Source: Escherichia coli (lineage in GTDB: Bacteria; Pseudomonadota; Gammaproteobacteria; Enterobacterales; Enterobacteriaceae). Taken from it: a DNA stretch of 64,000 bases. The stretch lies in the NCBI RefSeq assembly GCF_011045215.1, contig NZ_CP049201.1; one strand, given 5' to 3'. Positions 913 through 9,226 of the stretch are shown in pieces. Under the pieces are notes generated by a model. That model had not been told where the DNA came from, did not search any database, and worked only from the letters and a program-made list of their open reading frames with translations. The position numbers were made by a program, and so were the translations under genes. Each line of letters begins with the position of its first letter. Position 1 is the stretch's first letter.

Positions 913-2227
913 TGTTCAGGCTCCCTTGAGTGTTAATTTTTGCCAGACGACGCCCCGGAATTTTGAAAGCACTCAGCCAGACGTTCGGATCGCCCTGATA
1001 TTCAGTAATGCGACGCCCGGCTTCATCGTTGCGGATACGTTTATGCAGTTGCCCCTGCCTACTCATCATTTCTTTTTCGATGGACTGACGGGCGGCACTG
1101 AAAATTGCGTCCTCAAGCACAGCCAGCGTTGCAGAATCCGCAATCGCGCGAATATTGACGTCCTTATGTGCCGGAGAGTGTTTCTGCATAGCGATTAGCG
1201 CACGCTTGCGGTAGTCCAGCGCATTTTCACCAGAAAACGGTGCTGGCGCGTTTTTACCGCAGGCACTGAATGCGGAGTCGGCTTTTGCCTGCGCTTCTGC
1301 CAGGGCAGAGTCATTGCGTTCTTTTTCTGCCTCCTCGTCAGCCTTACGCTGTTCTTCCGCTTCGGAATCAGCCTTTGCTTTCTCCTCAGCGTCTTTGGCT
1401 GCCGCCTCGTCAGCTTTGGCTTTTTCTTCCGCCTCCTTTGCCGCAGCTTCATCAGCTTTACGCTGTTCCTCTGCTGCTTCATCGGCTTTGGCCTTTTCTT
1501 CGGCCTCTTTTTTCGCCAGCTCTTCAGCATCCGCCCGCGCTTTGTCCCGCTGTTCCAGTGAGTCCATGCGCGTGACGACTCCATCGATTTTCTGATTAAT
1601 GCCGCTCAGGGCATCATTCACCACCCCCTGTAACAGGGCCTGGAGTTCTTCTTTTTCCATCTCAATTTCACCTGTATTTGTCACTTCAACCCCTGCGGGG
1701 ATCCGGTCTTTATCCCACACGCCCAACGAGCCGTGGTCTTTCGTCACCAGGGCGATGTGATCAACAAGGAAAGGAACGCCTTCGATTAAAAAATTGGTGT
1801 CACCTTCCTGTACTTCCACATTTCCTGATGTGCTGTTGAACACCACCGACGGGCTTGTCGAAACATCCCCCTCAGTGATTTCTTCAACAATGCTCTGGAG
1901 GTAAACGCGGCACACCGCCCATACCTCATCACCCCGGATATACGGCAGCATGACGCTACCAACGATCCGCGATTTAAAATCCTCCTCCGTCAGAACTGCG
2001 TCGTCAGGATGGTTTGCGATAACCGGAAGGCCATTGCATCGCCTTAAAAACTCCTCGTTCAGATAGAGCTTTGGATCACGCCAGACGTGCTCTTTCAGCC
2101 CGGCGCGATAGGCAAGCCCGGTTCCGGTTATGCGCAAATTCACCAGCCACATGTTGGAGAATTTCACCGGAGACGGTACGGTTCCGTCCCTGATGCGTTC
2201 TGCCACTTCAAGCTCGGTTAAACTCAC
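905..2227 (-). CDS. prohead protease / scaffold-like protein with internal Ala/Glu/Lys-rich coiled-coil repeats, 440 aa
   Basis: Position directly after portal and head-morphogenesis genes; central low-complexity region of EEKAKADEAA-type repeats typical of scaffold domains. Confidence 0.4.
   Translation of the reverse strand: MSLTELEVAERIRDGTVPSPVKFSNMWLVNLRITGTGLAYRAGLKEHVWRDPKLYLNEEFLRRCNGLPVIANHPDDAVLTEEDFKSRIVGSVMLPYIRGDEVWAVCRVYLQSIVEEITEGDVSTSPSVVFNSTSGNVEVQEGDTNFLIEGVPFLVDHIALVTKDHGSLGVWDKDRIPAGVEVTNTGEIEMEKEELQALLQGVVNDALSGINQKIDGVVTRMDSLEQRDKARADAEELAKKEAEEKAKADEAAEEQRKADEAAAKEAEEKAKADEAAAKDAEEKAKADSEAEEQRKADEEAEKERNDSALAEAQAKADSAFSACGKNAPAPFSGENALDYRKRALIAMQKHSPAHKDVNIRAIADSATLAVLEDAIFSAARQSIEKEMMSRQGQLHKRIRNDEAGRRITEYQGDPNVWLSAFKIPGRRLAKINTQGSLNNG
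1314..1560. repeat. in-frame tandem degenerate repeat (about 27-30 nt units) encoding (A/E/K)-rich heptad-like repeats
   Basis: Direct reading: repeated gctttggc/ttcttccgcctc motifs; translated as AEEKAKADEAA repeats inside the 905-2227 ORF. Confidence 0.7.
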
Positions 2228-3041
2228 GTTTGCCCTTCTCCGTTAAAAATTCGTCGGGTAGTTTCTGAGGGGCGTAGATCGGCAGTGCATCGCAACTGCA
2301 ATAAACCTCCTCCCCGGCAGCAGTGATTTCGTCATAAAAACCATATACGGGCTTAATCAGCCCCTGCTCCAGCGCCCACGAATCGCGGAGGAGATAAATT
2401 TTCTCGTCGCGCTCTTTGTGGTCCTGTCGGTATTTGTAGCCCGGACGCCGCCAATTCGAATGCCAGCGCAGAGCAATCGCTCCACTCTGAACAGCCAGCA
2501 GATACTTAACGTTGCTTGCCAGCTTATGCCCCTGGTCAATTGCCACCCGACGACTGATAAAATCCATATCCTTCACGGATTTCTGAAACCCGGCCTTCAC
2601 TTCCCGGCGATCAATTTCGCTCACCCCGTCAGGCGGAATGGACGTAACCCAACCCTGAAAACGCTGTATGGTTTTCTCGATGGCCTGTTCTCGGTTGAGT
2701 TTTATCAGGTTGGCACTGGCGAAAATTCGCCTGTCGAGTTCCTTGCGAAACTCAGGTTTCAGTTTTTCAACAGTGATTTTTTTAGGGCCGTCAGGAGGCT
2801 GATCCCGTAATGCCCCGCCGTCGATGACAAGACGGCTGTAGATAGCGGTGAGGTGTTTTCTGGCTACGGTATCATCAGGGGTTTCTCGCTGAGCGGCTAC
2901 ACGGAGTTTCCGGCACCATTCGAGCAATGATTTTTCGCTATCCCACCCGTGATTTACGTAGTAGTTAACGGCATCCGTCAGAACCTCATACAGCGTCCTG
3001 ATCCGTTTCTTCTTCCTCACCGCCCGGCTGGAAATTGCCAT
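2208..3041 (-). CDS. phage head morphogenesis protein (Mu F / SPP1 gp7-like minor head protein); start uncertain
   Basis: ORF immediately downstream of portal in late operon; track ORF (2208-3179) overlaps portal so an internal start is assumed. Confidence 0.35.
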   Translation of the reverse strand: MAISSRAVRKKKRIRTLYEVLTDAVNYYVNHGWDSEKSLLEWCRKLRVAAQRETPDDTVARKHLTAIYSRLVIDGGALRDQPPDGPKKITVEKLKPEFRKELDRRIFASANLIKLNREQAIEKTIQRFQGWVTSIPPDGVSEIDRREVKAGFQKSVKDMDFISRRVAIDQGHKLASNVKYLLAVQSGAIALRWHSNWRRPGYKYRQDHKERDEKIYLLRDSWALEQGLIKPVYGFYDEITAAGEEVYCSCDALPIYAPQKLPDEFLTEKGKREFNRA

Positions 3042-4425
3042 CAGGCGTCTCCTGCTTCGGTGGTTCATAATTCGCCAGCGCGTCCACATCAATGATGAGT
3101 GGAGCTTCGCCATAGGTTTGCGTGGCATTAACAAGGCTTGCCAGCCATTCAGTGACGGCGGCACGGTTTTCAGGATCAACCTGTGGCGACACGGCAGAGA
3201 AAAGTGCTATCGCCTGTTGAATCACTTTACTGTCGCTTTCCCGGCGTTTGTCCGGCGACTCCTCCACCAGCTCCTGCCATGTCGCGGTAAATTCACGTCG
3301 CCACTGGTAAAACGTGGTTTTATAGTCATCAGTTATGATGTCCGGGTAATCATTTTTCAGCGACTGATAAAATTCCTCGTTCCAGGCGATGTACTGCACC
3401 AGGCGTTCGAAATAATCCATCACGGGTTCAATCTGCTGGCGTACACCATCGATATACTGGCTGATGGCTTTCGAATCTTCGGTCCCCTCACCGAAACCAT
3501 TCGAAAAGGCTTCCTCTTTGATGAGGATCGCCGGAACGTCACTCCCTGACGCAATATCGGAAATAATATTGTCGCGTGCAGCGTTTAGCGCACCATCGAT
3601 GTTTTGTAGATTTAGCGAGGTAACGTCCTCATCCTTCCCGATACTAAGCACACCTTTATTTTTTGCCTCTTTGACGTTTTCCCTTTTTCGTCCCGTGGCG
3701 GCAGCCATGATCCCGTCAAGTTTCGAACCGTACTGCACAACTTTAGCTACCAGTACGCCCGCCTTCTGGCTGACGAGATCATTCGCCTCCATCGTGTTGA
3801 TATAGGATTTCAGGGAATAAAGAACGCGCTGAAACACACTTCGTCCGGTGAATCCGAACGATGAACTCTGAAACTCCAGATAAATCGGTGTGCCGTTGAA
3901 GATTTTCAGTGTGCGTGACGGATGCCAGTCTTTCCCACCAATCTTCAGTTTTTTATTGGCTTCCTGGAAAAACGGGCTGTTGGGGTTCTGGTCAGTCACC
4001 ATCGAACCGGAAGCGTTCAACGGGTCCCACGCGTTGATATACACGTCATCTTCTGTCAGTCCGAACGTCGGAAGCGGTTCACGACATGGAACGCTGTCGG
4101 TGCCCACGCCGATCGCTGCAGCACCGTAGCAACGAGACAGAAAAAACAGATTTTTAATCTTCTCGTTGACCTTCATGCGTTCCCATACCTCCTGAAAACG
4201 CCTCACAACCCTCTCGTCAGGGTCTGTCTCCACGTTATACTGGCGCGGCTTACACATCGCCATCAGTATGGGTTTTTCGACAAGTTTTCCGCCCAGAGGA
4301 TGGAATTGCCACAGCTGCTTACACAATTCATAGCCAATGTCGGTTCCCGGCTGAATTTCTTCAGCCTCAAGAATACGCATCAGTGCCGAACCGAGGCCGC
4401 CAGTAATCTCGATCTCTGCCATCAA
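2986..4425 (-). CDS. phage portal protein, 479 aa
   Basis: Large ORF directly downstream of terminase large subunit with acidic C-terminus; canonical position of portal. Confidence 0.55.
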   Translation of the reverse strand: MMAEIEITGGLGSALMRILEAEEIQPGTDIGYELCKQLWQFHPLGGKLVEKPILMAMCKPRQYNVETDPDERVVRRFQEVWERMKVNEKIKNLFFLSRCYGAAAIGVGTDSVPCREPLPTFGLTEDDVYINAWDPLNASGSMVTDQNPNSPFFQEANKKLKIGGKDWHPSRTLKIFNGTPIYLEFQSSSFGFTGRSVFQRVLYSLKSYINTMEANDLVSQKAGVLVAKVVQYGSKLDGIMAAATGRKRENVKEAKNKGVLSIGKDEDVTSLNLQNIDGALNAARDNIISDIASGSDVPAILIKEEAFSNGFGEGTEDSKAISQYIDGVRQQIEPVMDYFERLVQYIAWNEEFYQSLKNDYPDIITDDYKTTFYQWRREFTATWQELVEESPDKRRESDSKVIQQAIALFSAVSPQVDPENRAAVTEWLASLVNATQTYGEAPLIIDVDALANYEPPKQETPDGNFQPGGEEEETDQDAV

Positions 4426-4439
4426 AAATATCCTGATTT

Positions 4440-5768
4440 TTACAACTCCGCGTAATTACCGTGCGCGATGATCAATCCATAGGTGTAACAATCGAAAAGG
4501 TCATCAGCACGTTTATGCGCGTCTTTGTCTGCCAGGTGGAACCCGGCGATTTGTTTGATGAGGTGGTTTGCGGTTGTGCGCTTGAATGAAACGGTTTTGT
4601 CGTAAGCCTCGCGGGTAATTTTGCATTTACCCTGGTAATGGTGGCTGGAAGCCAGCACCGCGCGCTCGTCTTTCCCTTTGCTGGTTAACGCTGATTTAAT
4701 CGGCGTCATATCCCAGCCTTCGGTTTCCGCTTTCTGGTTGAGGATTGCGCCCATTGCGGCATCCTCCATGAATACCCCCTGACTCCCCAGGCGCGGGCGG
4801 CAGAGTTGCGCCAGCCGCTCGAGGTTGTCATAAACACCGGGGATATACTCAGGAAGCAGCGACGCTTTAATTTGCGTCACATCCCAGTCGATAACGGTCA
4901 GTTTCGGCTCATCGGAATACGTGGACTCATACGCGAAGTAAACCACGCCTGTCCCGTCGTTCTCCGTCCCGCCTTTCAGCGCCGTATCCATTACCGCAAA
5001 AATCATGTCGCAGTGTCGCGGCATCTCAACCGGCTGGCCATCCACCAGCAGCTTATCGACATCGAGTAACGCGTCTTTGGACCAGTCTACGAACTCTGCA
5101 AGATATTCCTGCTGCCAGACGCGCGGATCGGATTTCTTCTCCGTTTCCTCCAGTTCTTCTTTCGGAATATACGGATTCGATGAAGTTGGCGCATGGTGCA
5201 TAACAAATCCCAGGGATTCATCGTGGCATATCGCGTAGAAAAAATTGCTCTCGTCGATACCGTTTGGTGTGGAAAATACCCACGCACAGCCGCGGTAATC
5301 GACAAGCGTCGGGCGTATCGCTCGGGGCCAGATTTCCTCGAGCATTTCCGGCGATTTAGTGAATGCGGCCTCATCAATCAGCACAGCGTGATATTTACGC
5401 CCACGCCCGGCCAGTTTGTTATTGTCCGTTACCCAAAAGTCGATGCGCCCCCCATTACGGAGAATGATGCGCTTTTCATTTTTTGACTGACTGAGGATCA
5501 GCGGTTGCAGAACGGCGCTAATTTCATCCCAGATTTCCTGGTACTGGCGGTATTGCGCGGTAAAAATCCCCACCCTACCCGCGATAAGTTGCCCGGTGGT
5601 AGGAACGGCAAATTTCCGCGTAGCGAAACTGGTAGCGATGTTCACCAGCATCACCGTTTTACCCCAGCGACGACCACAGCATACCGCGTGGAAGCGTTCC
5701 TCTATTGCCGCCGTCCATGCAGCTATTTGCCCCTCATGAGGTTTTGGGAGGTAGATTTCAATCGACAT
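4440..5768 (-). CDS. terminase large subunit, 442 aa
   Basis: Walker A-like motif CGRRWGKT near N-terminus, acidic nuclease-like C-terminal half; follows the small-subunit gene with a 4-codon overlap. Confidence 0.75.
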   Translation of the reverse strand: MSIEIYLPKPHEGQIAAWTAAIEERFHAVCCGRRWGKTVMLVNIATSFATRKFAVPTTGQLIAGRVGIFTAQYRQYQEIWDEISAVLQPLILSQSKNEKRIILRNGGRIDFWVTDNNKLAGRGRKYHAVLIDEAAFTKSPEMLEEIWPRAIRPTLVDYRGCAWVFSTPNGIDESNFFYAICHDESLGFVMHHAPTSSNPYIPKEELEETEKKSDPRVWQQEYLAEFVDWSKDALLDVDKLLVDGQPVEMPRHCDMIFAVMDTALKGGTENDGTGVVYFAYESTYSDEPKLTVIDWDVTQIKASLLPEYIPGVYDNLERLAQLCRPRLGSQGVFMEDAAMGAILNQKAETEGWDMTPIKSALTSKGKDERAVLASSHHYQGKCKITREAYDKTVSFKRTTANHLIKQIAGFHLADKDAHKRADDLFDCYTYGLIIAHGNYAEL

Positions 5769-6852: not shown

Positions 6853-7062
6853 TTAGTCCTGATTTTTATCCACCCTGAGTAGTTCACGCAGGGCAAAGGC
6901 ATCCCCTTTTCTGGCAAGCTTAAACAATGCCGCCCGTAGTTCGGCTTCACCTTTCGCTCTGCCCTTACGGATGGATGCGTAAAAATCTGTCATTGCTTCC
7001 CGATTTTCTTTCAGTCGGTTCAGATCAACATCCAGAACGTCAGCGATTTGTTGTGCAGTCAT
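6853..7062 (-). CDS. small HTH-like phage protein (about 69 aa from internal Met)
   Basis: Short ORF between GT-A-like gene and terS; alpha-helical basic sequence; start chosen to avoid overlap with upstream gene. Confidence 0.3.
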   Translation of the reverse strand: MTAQQIADVLDVDLNRLKENREAMTDFYASIRKGRAKGEAELRAALFKLARKGDAFALRELLRVDKNQD

Positions 7063-7990
7063 CCGGCACGCTGCCAGAGACTCGACTTTCGAATACGGAA
7101 TCATTTGTCACCCCCATTGATATGCAGGGTGTCTTCTTCCTGTATTTTTCGTGAAGGATTTTTACTGCAGCGTTGTTCCAGGTGACCTGATGGTGAATGC
7201 GTTTATGGCTGGCCCCCATCAGTGAGATTTTTACGCACGAGGGCGCATACATGACGGAGTAAAAACTTTTAACGTAGGTTCCGGAATCCAGATACAGCTC
7301 GGTCATTCCGCCGCTGTTTTTCTGCGTCTGTTTCTGCCCTAACTGGACAGCACCGATCGTCATAAACAATTCACCACAGCGACCGAGATTCGTGTACGTA
7401 TTCACATCCTCGTTAATGCGCCCCATGAATGAGAACGGTCGATCAACCGAACAGATAAAGCTGTTCATTGCCTTGCGTTTCACCCACGAAGCATGGCCGC
7501 CATTGTCACCAAGAAAATCCCCGCCCTGCGACATAGCGATGGAAAGCGCAGGTATTGATTCGTAGTACGCCAGCATTTCAGAAAGGATCGCATCCAGTTT
7601 TCTTATCGGGAAATAGGCCTGGTCATAGTTGCGATCCACCCGAAACTGAAACTCGTGATAATCATCATCGAGCTGAATGAAGTATTTACACCCGACCAGT
7701 TTTGCCAGGTCGAAACAGGCATTACGGGCGTAAAAAATTGAGCGGCGATCACCGAAATTATCGGCTTCGTCAAAACGACTGGCTATATCGGCTTTGGAAA
7801 ACACCAGCACCTGTTCACCAAATTCAGCTATGTACTGATGCCGTGTCTTATCTTCATCATCAACAACGATAAAAATTTTCCCGGTATAGCCAGCACGACG
7901 CAACGTCCGGTAAGTCAGAACTTTGTCCGGTCGCCCGTGAGTCAGAATAAAGGCGCAAAAATCATCACGCATATTCCTCCTCCCCGCCAT
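7040..7990 (-). CDS. hypothetical protein with GT-A-like (nucleotide-diphospho-sugar transferase-like) motifs, about 310 aa
   Basis: N-terminal FILTHGRPD...IFIVVDDED and a later LDDDY (DXD-like) motif resemble GT2-type glycosyltransferases; translationally coupled to the upstream ParB-like gene. Confidence 0.35.
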   Translation of the reverse strand: MAGRRNMRDDFCAFILTHGRPDKVLTYRTLRRAGYTGKIFIVVDDEDKTRHQYIAEFGEQVLVFSKADIASRFDEADNFGDRRSIFYARNACFDLAKLVGCKYFIQLDDDYHEFQFRVDRNYDQAYFPIRKLDAILSEMLAYYESIPALSIAMSQGGDFLGDNGGHASWVKRKAMNSFICSVDRPFSFMGRINEDVNTYTNLGRCGELFMTIGAVQLGQKQTQKNSGGMTELYLDSGTYVKSFYSVMYAPSCVKISLMGASHKRIHHQVTWNNAAVKILHEKYRKKTPCISMGVTNDSVFESRVSGSVPDDCTTNR

Positions 7991-8753
7991 GCATGATCTC
8001 CACCATACGCTGCGTCATCCGGACAAAACCATTTTCGATGGCTTGCTGATAATCAATGATCACCAGTGCCGACTCCTCAAAAAGGCCCTGAATTTCAGCG
8101 GGGGCGTGAGCGTAATAGTCTGCAATTCTGCTGAAATTAAACACCGTGTGGCGTTCTGCCGCGCACAGGAGGAATTTTTCGATATCAGGCTCAAGGGACG
8201 CCGTACGTATCCGGCTGACCAGCTCCTGAGTTTTCGTATCGTCGTACAGTTCACTGATATCCGGTTCATCCCCTGACGGCTCATAAACAGGCGTATCAAT
8301 TTTCGTCGTGTACGGCTCATCCTCATTCGCTGTACCTGGCAAAACATCCGTTAATAGTTCGTCAATTTCTGTCGGGCAGAATCCTGTCAGGGAGATATCA
8401 AAATCAGCATTGATTAGGTCCGACAGCTCCATCCGTAACAGATCTTCATCCCAGCCAGCACTCATCGGCAGGCGATTATCAGCCAGGCGGTACGCCTTTT
8501 TCTGATCATCCGTCAGACCAGACAGAACAATGACCGGAACCGAATCCATTTTGAGCGCCTCAGCCGCCATAACACGCCCGTGCCCCGCAATAATTTCACC
8601 CTTTTCATCAATCAGCACCGGATTTGTCCAGCCGAATTGCTTAATGCTTTCAACCAGCTGTGTCACCTGTTCAGGAGAGTGTGTCCTTGCATTGTGCACA
8701 TACGGAGACAACTCTTGTAACAGTCGATAGACAATATTCAATTTTTCGCTCAT
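7965..8753 (-). CDS. ParB-like nuclease domain protein, 262 aa
   Basis: ParB/Srx-type N-terminal domain (…VHNARTHS…IIAGHGR motif); start at the ATG preceded by a GAGG Shine-Dalgarno. Confidence 0.6.
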   Translation of the reverse strand: MSEKLNIVYRLLQELSPYVHNARTHSPEQVTQLVESIKQFGWTNPVLIDEKGEIIAGHGRVMAAEALKMDSVPVIVLSGLTDDQKKAYRLADNRLPMSAGWDEDLLRMELSDLINADFDISLTGFCPTEIDELLTDVLPGTANEDEPYTTKIDTPVYEPSGDEPDISELYDDTKTQELVSRIRTASLEPDIEKFLLCAAERHTVFNFSRIADYYAHAPAEIQGLFEESALVIIDYQQAIENGFVRMTQRMVEIMHGGEEEYA

Positions 8754-9226
8754 ACAACCTCGCTTTATGAATAAAAAACTAACAGCAGCCAGTGGAGAGC
8801 ATTTATCATTAACATTTACAGATAAGATGACGTACATCATTGAAACGCCATTAAGCTATATACCTGCAGCATTTGTAGTTGCACTCCGCAACTCTGCGAC
8901 TACGGTTATAAAAGCATTGGCAACTTTTGCCACCGGCAAATCTTCCATGGATTTCCTCTGCCGGTTTTTTATTTTCGTCGATGCATAACATTGCATTTAC
9001 ATCAATACCGTCTATTGTCATAAGTATGTTGTACCGATGCTCGGGTGATATTGGCGGTCTTCGCCAGCCGGTTCTGTGTAGTTGCTCCCTGTGACCGGTT
9101 TTTTATTTCTCACATTACAGCAGCCCCTCACCAAAGGGCTGCTGTAATGCCTGCTGTTACTCACAAATCAGACCATCATGATCACCGCTCATCCCTGGAC
9201 TGTTCCCGCAGTCGGAGTTTTGTTTT

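Follow-up and report, generated by a model that had tools for sequence, protein, structure and literature searches.

Gene and domain organisation

The stretch of DNA analysed here, hereafter the window, comprises 64,000 nucleotides (nt) of the Escherichia coli contig NZ_CP049201.1 (assembly GCF_011045215.1). Near its start, on the minus strand, lies a gene of a Rac-like prophage encoding a protein of 440 amino acids (aa). The subject of this work is this predicted prohead protease-scaffold protein and the array of charged repeats in its middle part. A first-pass annotation, made from the sequence letters, had placed at 1314-1560 a recombination-prone tandem repeat inside a scaffold/protease gene, with in-frame (A/E/K)-rich units that generate spurious antisense open reading frames (ORFs) and could vary in copy number between related phages. 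The coordinates of all features are collected in Table 1.

The homologs of the 440-aa protein are named 'DUF2213 domain-containing protein' in RefSeq, and a Pfam match to DUF2213 (PF09979) over aa 46-163, with 27.4 bits against a gathering cut-off of 22, places the protein in this family. A comparison with PHROGs returned phrog_6216 (E 3e-206) as well as weak matches to 'head maturation protease' PHROGs. In minus-strand order, the genes of the large terminase subunit (TerL, 4440-5768), the portal protein (2986-4425) and a Mu-F/SPP1-gp7-like head morphogenesis protein (2208-3179) precede the gene in question, which is followed on its 3' side by a gene for a 205-aa protein (295-912) and then by the major capsid gene, which is cut off by the start of the window. 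Phages as distant as those of Shewanella, Yersinia, Pantoea and Klebsiella share this order of the head module.

An AlphaFold2 model built on 80 diverse homologs had a mean predicted local distance difference test score (pLDDT) of 85.5. It includes a beta-rich N-terminal domain (aa 1-165), two long helices (aa 192-241 and 260-322) with a low pLDDT at aa 243-258 between them, and a mixed C-terminal domain (aa 336-420). The N-terminal domain adopts the fold of T4 gp21 and herpesvirus assemblin, and a Foldseek search against viral models retrieved, besides DUF2213 proteins, many entries with the name prohead protease. The 80 sequences are 35-52% identical to the query, yet show no variation at H73, T124-S125-P126 and E149 and almost none at D156 and H157. 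We conclude from the model that the N-terminal domain is probably a capsid-maturation serine protease of the assemblin/gp21 fold; the candidates for the third member of the predicted catalytic triad are E149 and H157. The conserved C-terminal domain is presumed to be the scaffold core or the capsid-binding part of the protein. The assignment of the repeat to a scaffold/protease gene thus gains support from the position between the portal/Mu-F genes and the capsid gene, the predicted fold, the long helix and the conserved C-terminal domain.

A direct match to solved structures was also sought. The single sequence gave only a weak hit to the coiled coil of V-ATPase subunit G (E 0.58), and in the search with a profile of the homolog alignment (A3) the NUDIX domain of the relatives dominated and no protease alignment was obtained. 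In the literature, DUF2213 was found in annotation tables and in one transposon sequencing (Tn-seq) paper, with no experimental description, and nothing was found on the head proteins of phage Rac-SA53. The Tn-seq study, which concerns BCAM1066 of Burkholderia cenocepacia, refers to DUF2213 as an 'essential domain of unknown function' (PMC8770471). The model described above suggests that the DUF2213 of BCAM1066 is a prophage prohead protease domain, and its apparent essentiality may have another cause.

Table 1. Features of the protease-scaffold gene and of its repeat array, in window coordinates.
Feature	Position	Strand	Details
Protease-scaffold gene	905-2227	minus	GTG start, 440 aa and stop; from the ORF list; same coding sequence annotated in homologous prophages
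N-terminal protease domain (predicted)	1673-2227	minus	aa 1-185; candidate catalytic H73 (2009-2011), S125 (1853-1855), E149 (1781-1783) or H157
Shine-Dalgarno-like AGGTGA	1668-1673	minus	7 nt upstream of internal ATG 1658-1660
Nested scaffold ORF (proposed)	905-1660	minus	251 aa from M190; same stop codon as the full-length gene
Upstream anchor R-M-D-S	1559-1570	minus	aa 220-223; R220 69/80, D222 69/80, E225 69/80
Repeat array, six units	1307-1522	minus	aa 236-307; in frame of 905-2227; units of 14 or 10 codons
Unit L'	1481-1522	minus	ELAKKEAEEKAKAD
Unit S1	1451-1480	minus	EAAEEQRKAD
Unit L1	1409-1450	minus	EAAAKEAEEKAKAD
Unit L2	1367-1408	minus	EAAAKDAEEKAKAD
Unit S2	1337-1366	minus	SEAEEQRKAD
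Unit S'	1307-1336	minus	EEAEKERNDS
30-nt deletion block (Rac-SA53 type)	1460-1489	minus	One S unit lost; 5-nt microhomology AAAGC within a 15/17 imperfect repeat
72-nt deletion block, E. coli P13-6	1361-1432	minus	9-nt microhomology GCGGAAGAA
72-nt deletion block, IMG/VR L028/L070	1343-1414	minus	10-nt microhomology GCTGACGAGG
75-nt deletion block, E. coli ETEC1738	1334-1408	minus	5-nt microhomology GAGGC
Downstream anchor K-A-D-S	1274-1285	minus	aa 315-318, start of C-terminal domain; Q313, A316, D317 at least 90% conserved; fits motif logo
Conserved C-terminal domain	908-1306	minus	aa 308-440; conserved columns; pLDDT 84-98
Spurious antisense ORF, 101 aa	1270-1575	plus	P/L-rich; low-complexity by-product of repeat codons
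Spurious antisense ORF, 93 aa	1314-1595	plus	S/A/F-rich; its start is the start of the interval in the first-pass annotation
Spurious same-strand ORF, 129 aa	1195-1584	minus	K/R-rich; other frame, read only in the frameshifted copy L042

Structure of the repeat array

The array consists of six imperfect units of two kinds. The consensus of the L unit (14 codons) is E-A-A-A-K-E/D-A-E-E-K-A-K-A-D and that of the S unit (10 codons) is E-A-A-E-E-Q-R-K-A-D. K-A-D closes the units L', S1, L1, L2 and S2, and the last residues of S' are R-N-D-S. At 1367-1459, Tandem Repeats Finder (TRF) detected 2.2 copies of a 42-nt period with 74% matches and no indels, and repeat families with spacings of 30, 42 and 72 nt extend across 1327-1528. 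The nucleotide autocorrelation peaks at lags 114, 72, 42 and 30 (0.60, 0.57, 0.51 and 0.51, respectively). Codon shuffling (1000 replicates) gave a maximum autocorrelation of 0.487 ± 0.019 on average and of at most 0.574, which indicates a periodicity beyond that due to composition. Two independent IMG/VR assemblies (L047 and L065) contain a 440-aa product identical to that of the window.

The in-frame, (A/E/K)-rich repeat placed at 1314-1560 is therefore real: this interval encodes 83 aa, with A, E, K or D at 84% of the positions, and the units themselves occupy 1307-1522. The annotation was also right about the spurious antisense ORFs, of which there are two, joined by one ORF on the same strand; all three have low-complexity translations. 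Four of the six frames are open across the array, since the codons GAA, GCN, AAA and GAT hold no stop in other frames.

Length variation of the array and how recombination-prone it is

In a sample of E. coli, the segment was found in 81 of 5426 complete genomes; two of the 81 records were not individually inspected for length. The full-length array is present in at least 60 of the 81. A 30-nt deletion allele was found in 17, and these copies are 99.8-100% identical to one another, so that they go back most simply to one inherited event. The allele of Rac-SA53 equals the window allele minus these 30 nt and is otherwise identical over the 311 nt compared. One genome each lacks 72 nt (E. coli P13-6) and 75 nt (E. 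coli ETEC1738). The prophage contigs of IMG/VR added two more copies of the 30-nt deletion and a second 72-nt deletion with another junction (L028/L070). In two further contigs (L067 and L068), with N-terminal domains 98-99% identical to that of the window, four tandem S units replace the internal L units, giving a length of 95-96 aa versus 102 aa.

All length changes among close relatives are in frame and lie within the 216-nt array, and the junctions of all deletions are flanked by 5-10 nt of exact microhomology. No alleles longer than 440 aa occurred among the copies 98-100% identical, and gain of units was seen only in the rebuilt four-S arrays. The comparison of homologous prophages, which the first-pass annotation had proposed, thus showed that the array length is not invariant, and the expected variation of copy number took the form of the 30-nt, 72-nt (two junctions) and 75-nt deletions and of the four-S arrays.

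Several other copies are disrupted. In L087 (1042-2271) a gene for an IS110-family transposase splits the protease-scaffold gene at about aa 201; the apparent second gene was considered as a separate scaffold gene and rejected, as it results from this insertion. L090 and the protein P0122 show a truncated match like that of L087, and L042 carries a frameshift directly after the repeat.

The DNA similarity of the units is limited: pairs of units are 67-74% identical, and the longest exact direct repeat has 11 nt. The null expectation was obtained by reshuffling synonymous codons among positions with the same amino acid. The lag identities (z from -1.4 to +2.2) fell within this null, and so did the longest exact repeat, with 11 nt against 13 ± 3 nt expected. 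The units L1 and L2 have 13 of 14 residues in common, and 11 of these 13 are encoded by different codons. Because the similarity in DNA is no more than the protein repeat requires and the codons of L1 and L2 differ, the array is, judging from its sequence, an old repeat at the protein level that selection on the peptide has preserved while synonymous sites were randomised. Slippage is possible but rare on the same grounds.

An adaptive origin of the length changes has to be weighed here, namely that the array is a hypermutable variable-number tandem repeat (VNTR), or contingency locus, whose frequent copy-number changes tune capsid size or another phage phenotype. Such a locus could account for the confinement of all length differences of close relatives to the array and for at least five independent events, but near-perfect DNA repeats and high-frequency change were not found. 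The divergence of the units, with a similarity equal to that of shuffled synonymous codons, led to the rejection of the contingency-locus reading, and the constant length in most E. coli copies, together with the probable single origin of the commonest deletion, also contradicts it. Moreover, the changes are all in frame, which leaves no on/off switching. We regard the adaptive tuning as highly improbable, and the array is not a VNTR. As for the term 'recombination-prone', it holds in that the array takes all of the length differences between close relatives, but it is overstated for units about 70% identical with a longest repeat of 11 nt.

The spacer across the family and its predicted helical character

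A search of 1.84 billion representatives found 1849 relatives at E <= 0.001. In 149 representatives the spacer between the conserved N- and C-terminal domains is 50-278 aa long (median 106), and the family spacers are charged and built of lineage-specific repeats. Where the N-terminal domain is 67-100% identical, the spacer measures 87-106 aa despite a complete turnover of its sequence, with the 78-aa deletion allele of L070 as the exception. This hints at stabilising selection on spacer length.

In the window, 62% of the residues of the segment are charged and large hydrophobic residues make up 1 of 81. Opposite-charge pairs at i/i+3 and i/i+4 number 47 versus 28 ± 4 expected (z +4.8), and like-charge pairs are depleted (z -4.1). 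The segment thus combines a high charge, the absence of a hydrophobic seam and an excess of opposite-charge pairs, and it is predicted to be helical, as in ER/K-like helices. It seems that the window spacer has the signature of a charged single alpha-helix and not that of a hydrophobic coiled coil.

Two names found in databases were considered and rejected. The name NUDIX hydrolase, given in some RefSeq and UniRef entries, refers to a domain which is present only in longer relatives and is absent from the window protein. The name TolA, given in the GenBank records KU052037 and PP818812, corresponds to a TIGR02794 match of 29.2 bits against a cut-off of 59.45, covering only the low-complexity part (aa 229-326).

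In many distant homologs (P0139, P0146, P0129 and P0180; loci L043-L046 and L096-L126), the protease-scaffold part is preceded by a fused NUDIX domain at the N terminus. Among the relatives there are also one protein with DUF6321 and NUDIX domains and one 1567-aa protein with ribonucleotide-reductase and NUDIX domains. Such an architecture suggests that enzymes are delivered into capsids as fusions in the NUDIX-bearing relatives.

A probable internal start and nested scaffold

The internal ATG of M190 is preceded by a Shine-Dalgarno-like sequence, and M190 lies where the protease domain gives way to the long helix of the AlphaFold2 model; an in-frame start codon with a putative ribosome-binding site is present at the junction of protease and scaffold. 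In the 80 homologs this column contains 69 M and 6 V, and the ten neighbouring columns are variable. Both the internal ATG and a Shine-Dalgarno-like core (AGGTG, GAGGTG, GGAG or GAGG) 7-9 nt upstream are kept in 74 of 78 distinct relatives with DNA, the latter compared with 19% of in-frame positions in the same genes, though the count of 74 of 78 overstates the support, as the relatives are not phylogenetically independent. The motif is kept though the encoded residues change (TGEIE, KGDID, PEVSD and NEAEI). A second product, a 251-aa scaffold translated from M190, is probably made, to judge by these sequence features; a point to be set against it is that M190 could be conserved for structural reasons.

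The repeated [KR]xD[SA] motif

The motif [KR]xD[SA] occurs 1056 times in 148 spacers versus 156 ± 12 expected from shuffles (z 77), with a median of seven per protein, and its density is 4.5 per 100 aa in the spacers versus 0.21 in folded domains. The motif logo reads K-A-[RK]-x-D-[AS]-E-E. The window protein contains nine relaxed copies of the motif in aa 220-318, to which the K-A-D and R-N-D-S ends of the units belong, and the deletion alleles lose one or two.

One alternative would be that the array is a compositionally biased neutral linker, its units and K-A-D ends being by-products of slippage of one ancestral unit and its length changes neutral or mildly harmful. The lack of conservation of both sequence and length across the family, the many amino-acid substitutions inside the array among close alleles and the decay of several prophage copies are in line with this. 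However, the motif is about 7-fold enriched over shuffles in otherwise dissimilar spacers and recurs at the two conserved anchors, the codon differences between L1 and L2 point to old duplicates under peptide selection, and the spacer length stays within narrow bounds in spite of sequence turnover. A neutral linker is therefore considered unlikely.

The T4 protease gp21 digests the gp22 scaffold to small peptides (PMC9958956). The reading we favour, though only tentatively, is that the [KR]xD[SA] copies may likewise be cleavage sites for the cis-encoded protease, by which the scaffold would be fragmented. With its acidic P1 and small P1' residues, the motif resembles the sites of T4 and herpesviruses. 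T4-type proteases recognise short x-x-E motifs and cleave behind the acidic residue, and herpesvirus assemblin cuts between A and S.

The main rival is a role of the K-A-D-type motif as a helix cap or as a low-affinity contact with the inner capsid surface, with the portal or through DNA-mimic charge, in which the number of units would set avidity or length. The D-[AS]-E-E part makes a good helix N-cap and first turn and stands in a strong i/i+4 salt-bridge pattern. Besides, the Asp is followed by E instead of S/A in five of the nine motif copies of the window protein, and the major capsid protein has no [KR]xD[SA]; both facts fit a contact or a cap and speak against cleavage, the case for which is at its weakest in the window protein. 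On the other hand, a cut after the D of K-x-D, before A or S, agrees with the cutting pattern of both the T4-type proteases (acidic residue) and assemblin (between A and S), and the motif is found at either end of the spacer, the places at which cuts for release are to be expected. A contact or capping role is a possible, likewise tentative, alternative. The motif was also examined as a maturation site in other head proteins and rejected as such: the capsid protein has none, and the single copy in the neighbouring 205-aa protein, which is not conserved in 60 homologs, likewise counts against cleavage. The portal protein has one copy (KEDS at aa 314).

In a more speculative form of the cleavage reading, the 10- and 14-residue units might be modular self-destruct cassettes, each with one K-x-D site cut before A, S or E by the protease of the same polypeptide. 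If so, the spacer would serve as a rigid charged ruler during assembly and afterwards as a pre-scored strip that is shredded, [KR]xD[SA] would define the specificity of the DUF2213 protease, and the NUDIX or even ribonucleotide-reductase domains of the relatives would be releasable capsid cargo.

Proposed model

Taken together, the array likely forms the central spacer of a fusion of prohead protease and scaffold encoded by a Rac-like E. coli prophage, with two proposed products and multiple candidate cleavage sites. According to this model, the gene would yield two proteins, the entire protease fusion and, in larger amounts, a 251-aa scaffold translated from M190 with its own ribosome-binding site. 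The spacer, a charged single alpha-helix of about 12 nm per 80 aa, would hold the capsid-binding C-terminal domain apart from the protease or the scaffold interior, and the repeated [KR]-x-D-[SA]-type motif would provide multiple cleavage sites. After the assembly of the shell, the protease would cut the scaffold to short peptides that exit the capsid, as T4 gp21 does with gp22. Rare slippage between the diverged DNA repeats would be tolerated because the function rests on the approximate length and on motif-bearing units and not on the exact sequence, and over longer times the spacer would turn over completely.

Apart from the points raised above for the start and the motif, several observations weigh against this model. 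The repeat has a low to moderate pLDDT (41-81), which makes the continuity of the helix uncertain. The deletion alleles come from prophages, some of which are decaying (IS insertion, frameshift), and not all of them need be functional. Relatives at E < 1e-8 were found in 14 GenBank phage records, none of which is a studied model.

If correct, the model gives a function to a widespread domain of unknown function with about 1850 representative clusters at E <= 0.001. It also corrects the labels 'TolA protein' and 'NUDIX hydrolase', which stem from the repeat or from the relatives, and flags three ORFs as artefacts. Near-identical genes that differ naturally in length (by 10, 24 or 25 missing residues, or by rebuilt arrays) could be used to test spacer length against capsid geometry. 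The candidate cleavage motif and the predicted nested scaffold gene are concrete additions of moderate interest. Protease-scaffold fusions, nested scaffolds and fast-evolving charged linkers are already established, and the repeat is an ordinary feature that will not surprise a specialist in phage assembly.

Genomic context

At 1-24715 the window carries a Rac-like prophage in part, with its early, lysis and head regions (recE, kilR, dicA/dicC, ydaU/V/W, Q, holin, endolysin, terminase and head genes). Rac-SA53 matches 55% of the first 24.7 kb at 91.5% identity, and the window start cuts off the remaining head and tail genes. The portal gene and its RefSeq homologs (L003-L006) carry the name 'anti-CBASS protein Acb1 family protein', assigned by the Prokaryotic Genome Annotation Pipeline (PGAP). 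The protein matches Phage_portal_3 (E 1.6e-12) and the portal phrog_146 (E 6e-75), and the RefSeq name looks misleading.

The lysis genes are separated from the gene of the small terminase subunit by a pair of minus-strand genes (7040-8840) encoding a TET-associated glycosyltransferase (7040-7990; PF20691, E 1e-34) and a protein with a ParB_N domain (7965-8840). In phage Rac-SA53 the matching position is occupied by genes of the LT-IIa enterotoxin. The region looks like a slot for alternative cargo ('moron'), and the pair possibly plays a role in DNA modification.

Some of the matching records carry doubtful labels. The record PP818812.1 (L002), 'Actinobacillus phage vB_Apl-pPE4', is 97.7% identical to the window gene and, across half of the window's first 25 kb, reaches about 92% identity; its host attribution is doubtful. 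NZ_CP026085.1 and NZ_CM135829.1, labelled 'DH5alpha' (4.83 Mb), carry this intact head module and show the same identity to the window as the records of E. coli W, LY180 and KO11FL. These strain labels look doubtful because the Rac prophage of K-12 is not known to carry head genes.

Comparison with known systems

Among the closest counterparts are the DUF2213 relatives, including the Pbunavirus gene located between the Mu-F-like and major capsid genes and the NUDIX-DUF2213 fusions, which share both the family and the position in the head module with the window gene. Unlike the window copy, many of these relatives possess an N-terminal NUDIX domain.

As a long helical spacer built of A/E/K/D-rich repeats, the array resembles domain II of TolA and the ER/K single alpha-helices, and it is this likeness in composition to TolA domain II that accounts for the GenBank label 'TolA protein'. 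The two proteins are not homologous, however, and the window protein has neither a membrane anchor nor TolA domain III.

In T4, the protease gp21 and the scaffold gp22 are encoded by separate genes, in contrast to the fusion described here, and the sequence identity is about 9%. The T4 cleavage motif is (L/I)-x-E, as against the candidate [KR]-x-D-[SA] of the window protein.

The nested protease-scaffold genes with an in-frame internal start, namely C/Nu3 of phage lambda, I/Z of phage Mu and UL26/UL26.5 of herpesviruses, are similar to the window gene in the N-terminal protease linked to a scaffold, in the putative internal start and in the position from portal to capsid, the two products of the window gene being predicted ones. 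The protease of UL26 is also similar in fold, as the window protease has the predicted fold of assemblin and T4 gp21, whereas lambda C belongs to another, ClpP/SppA-like, protease family. The window protein differs from all three systems in that no sequence similarity to them is detectable and in its spacer, which appears to be a long charged helix built of repeats.

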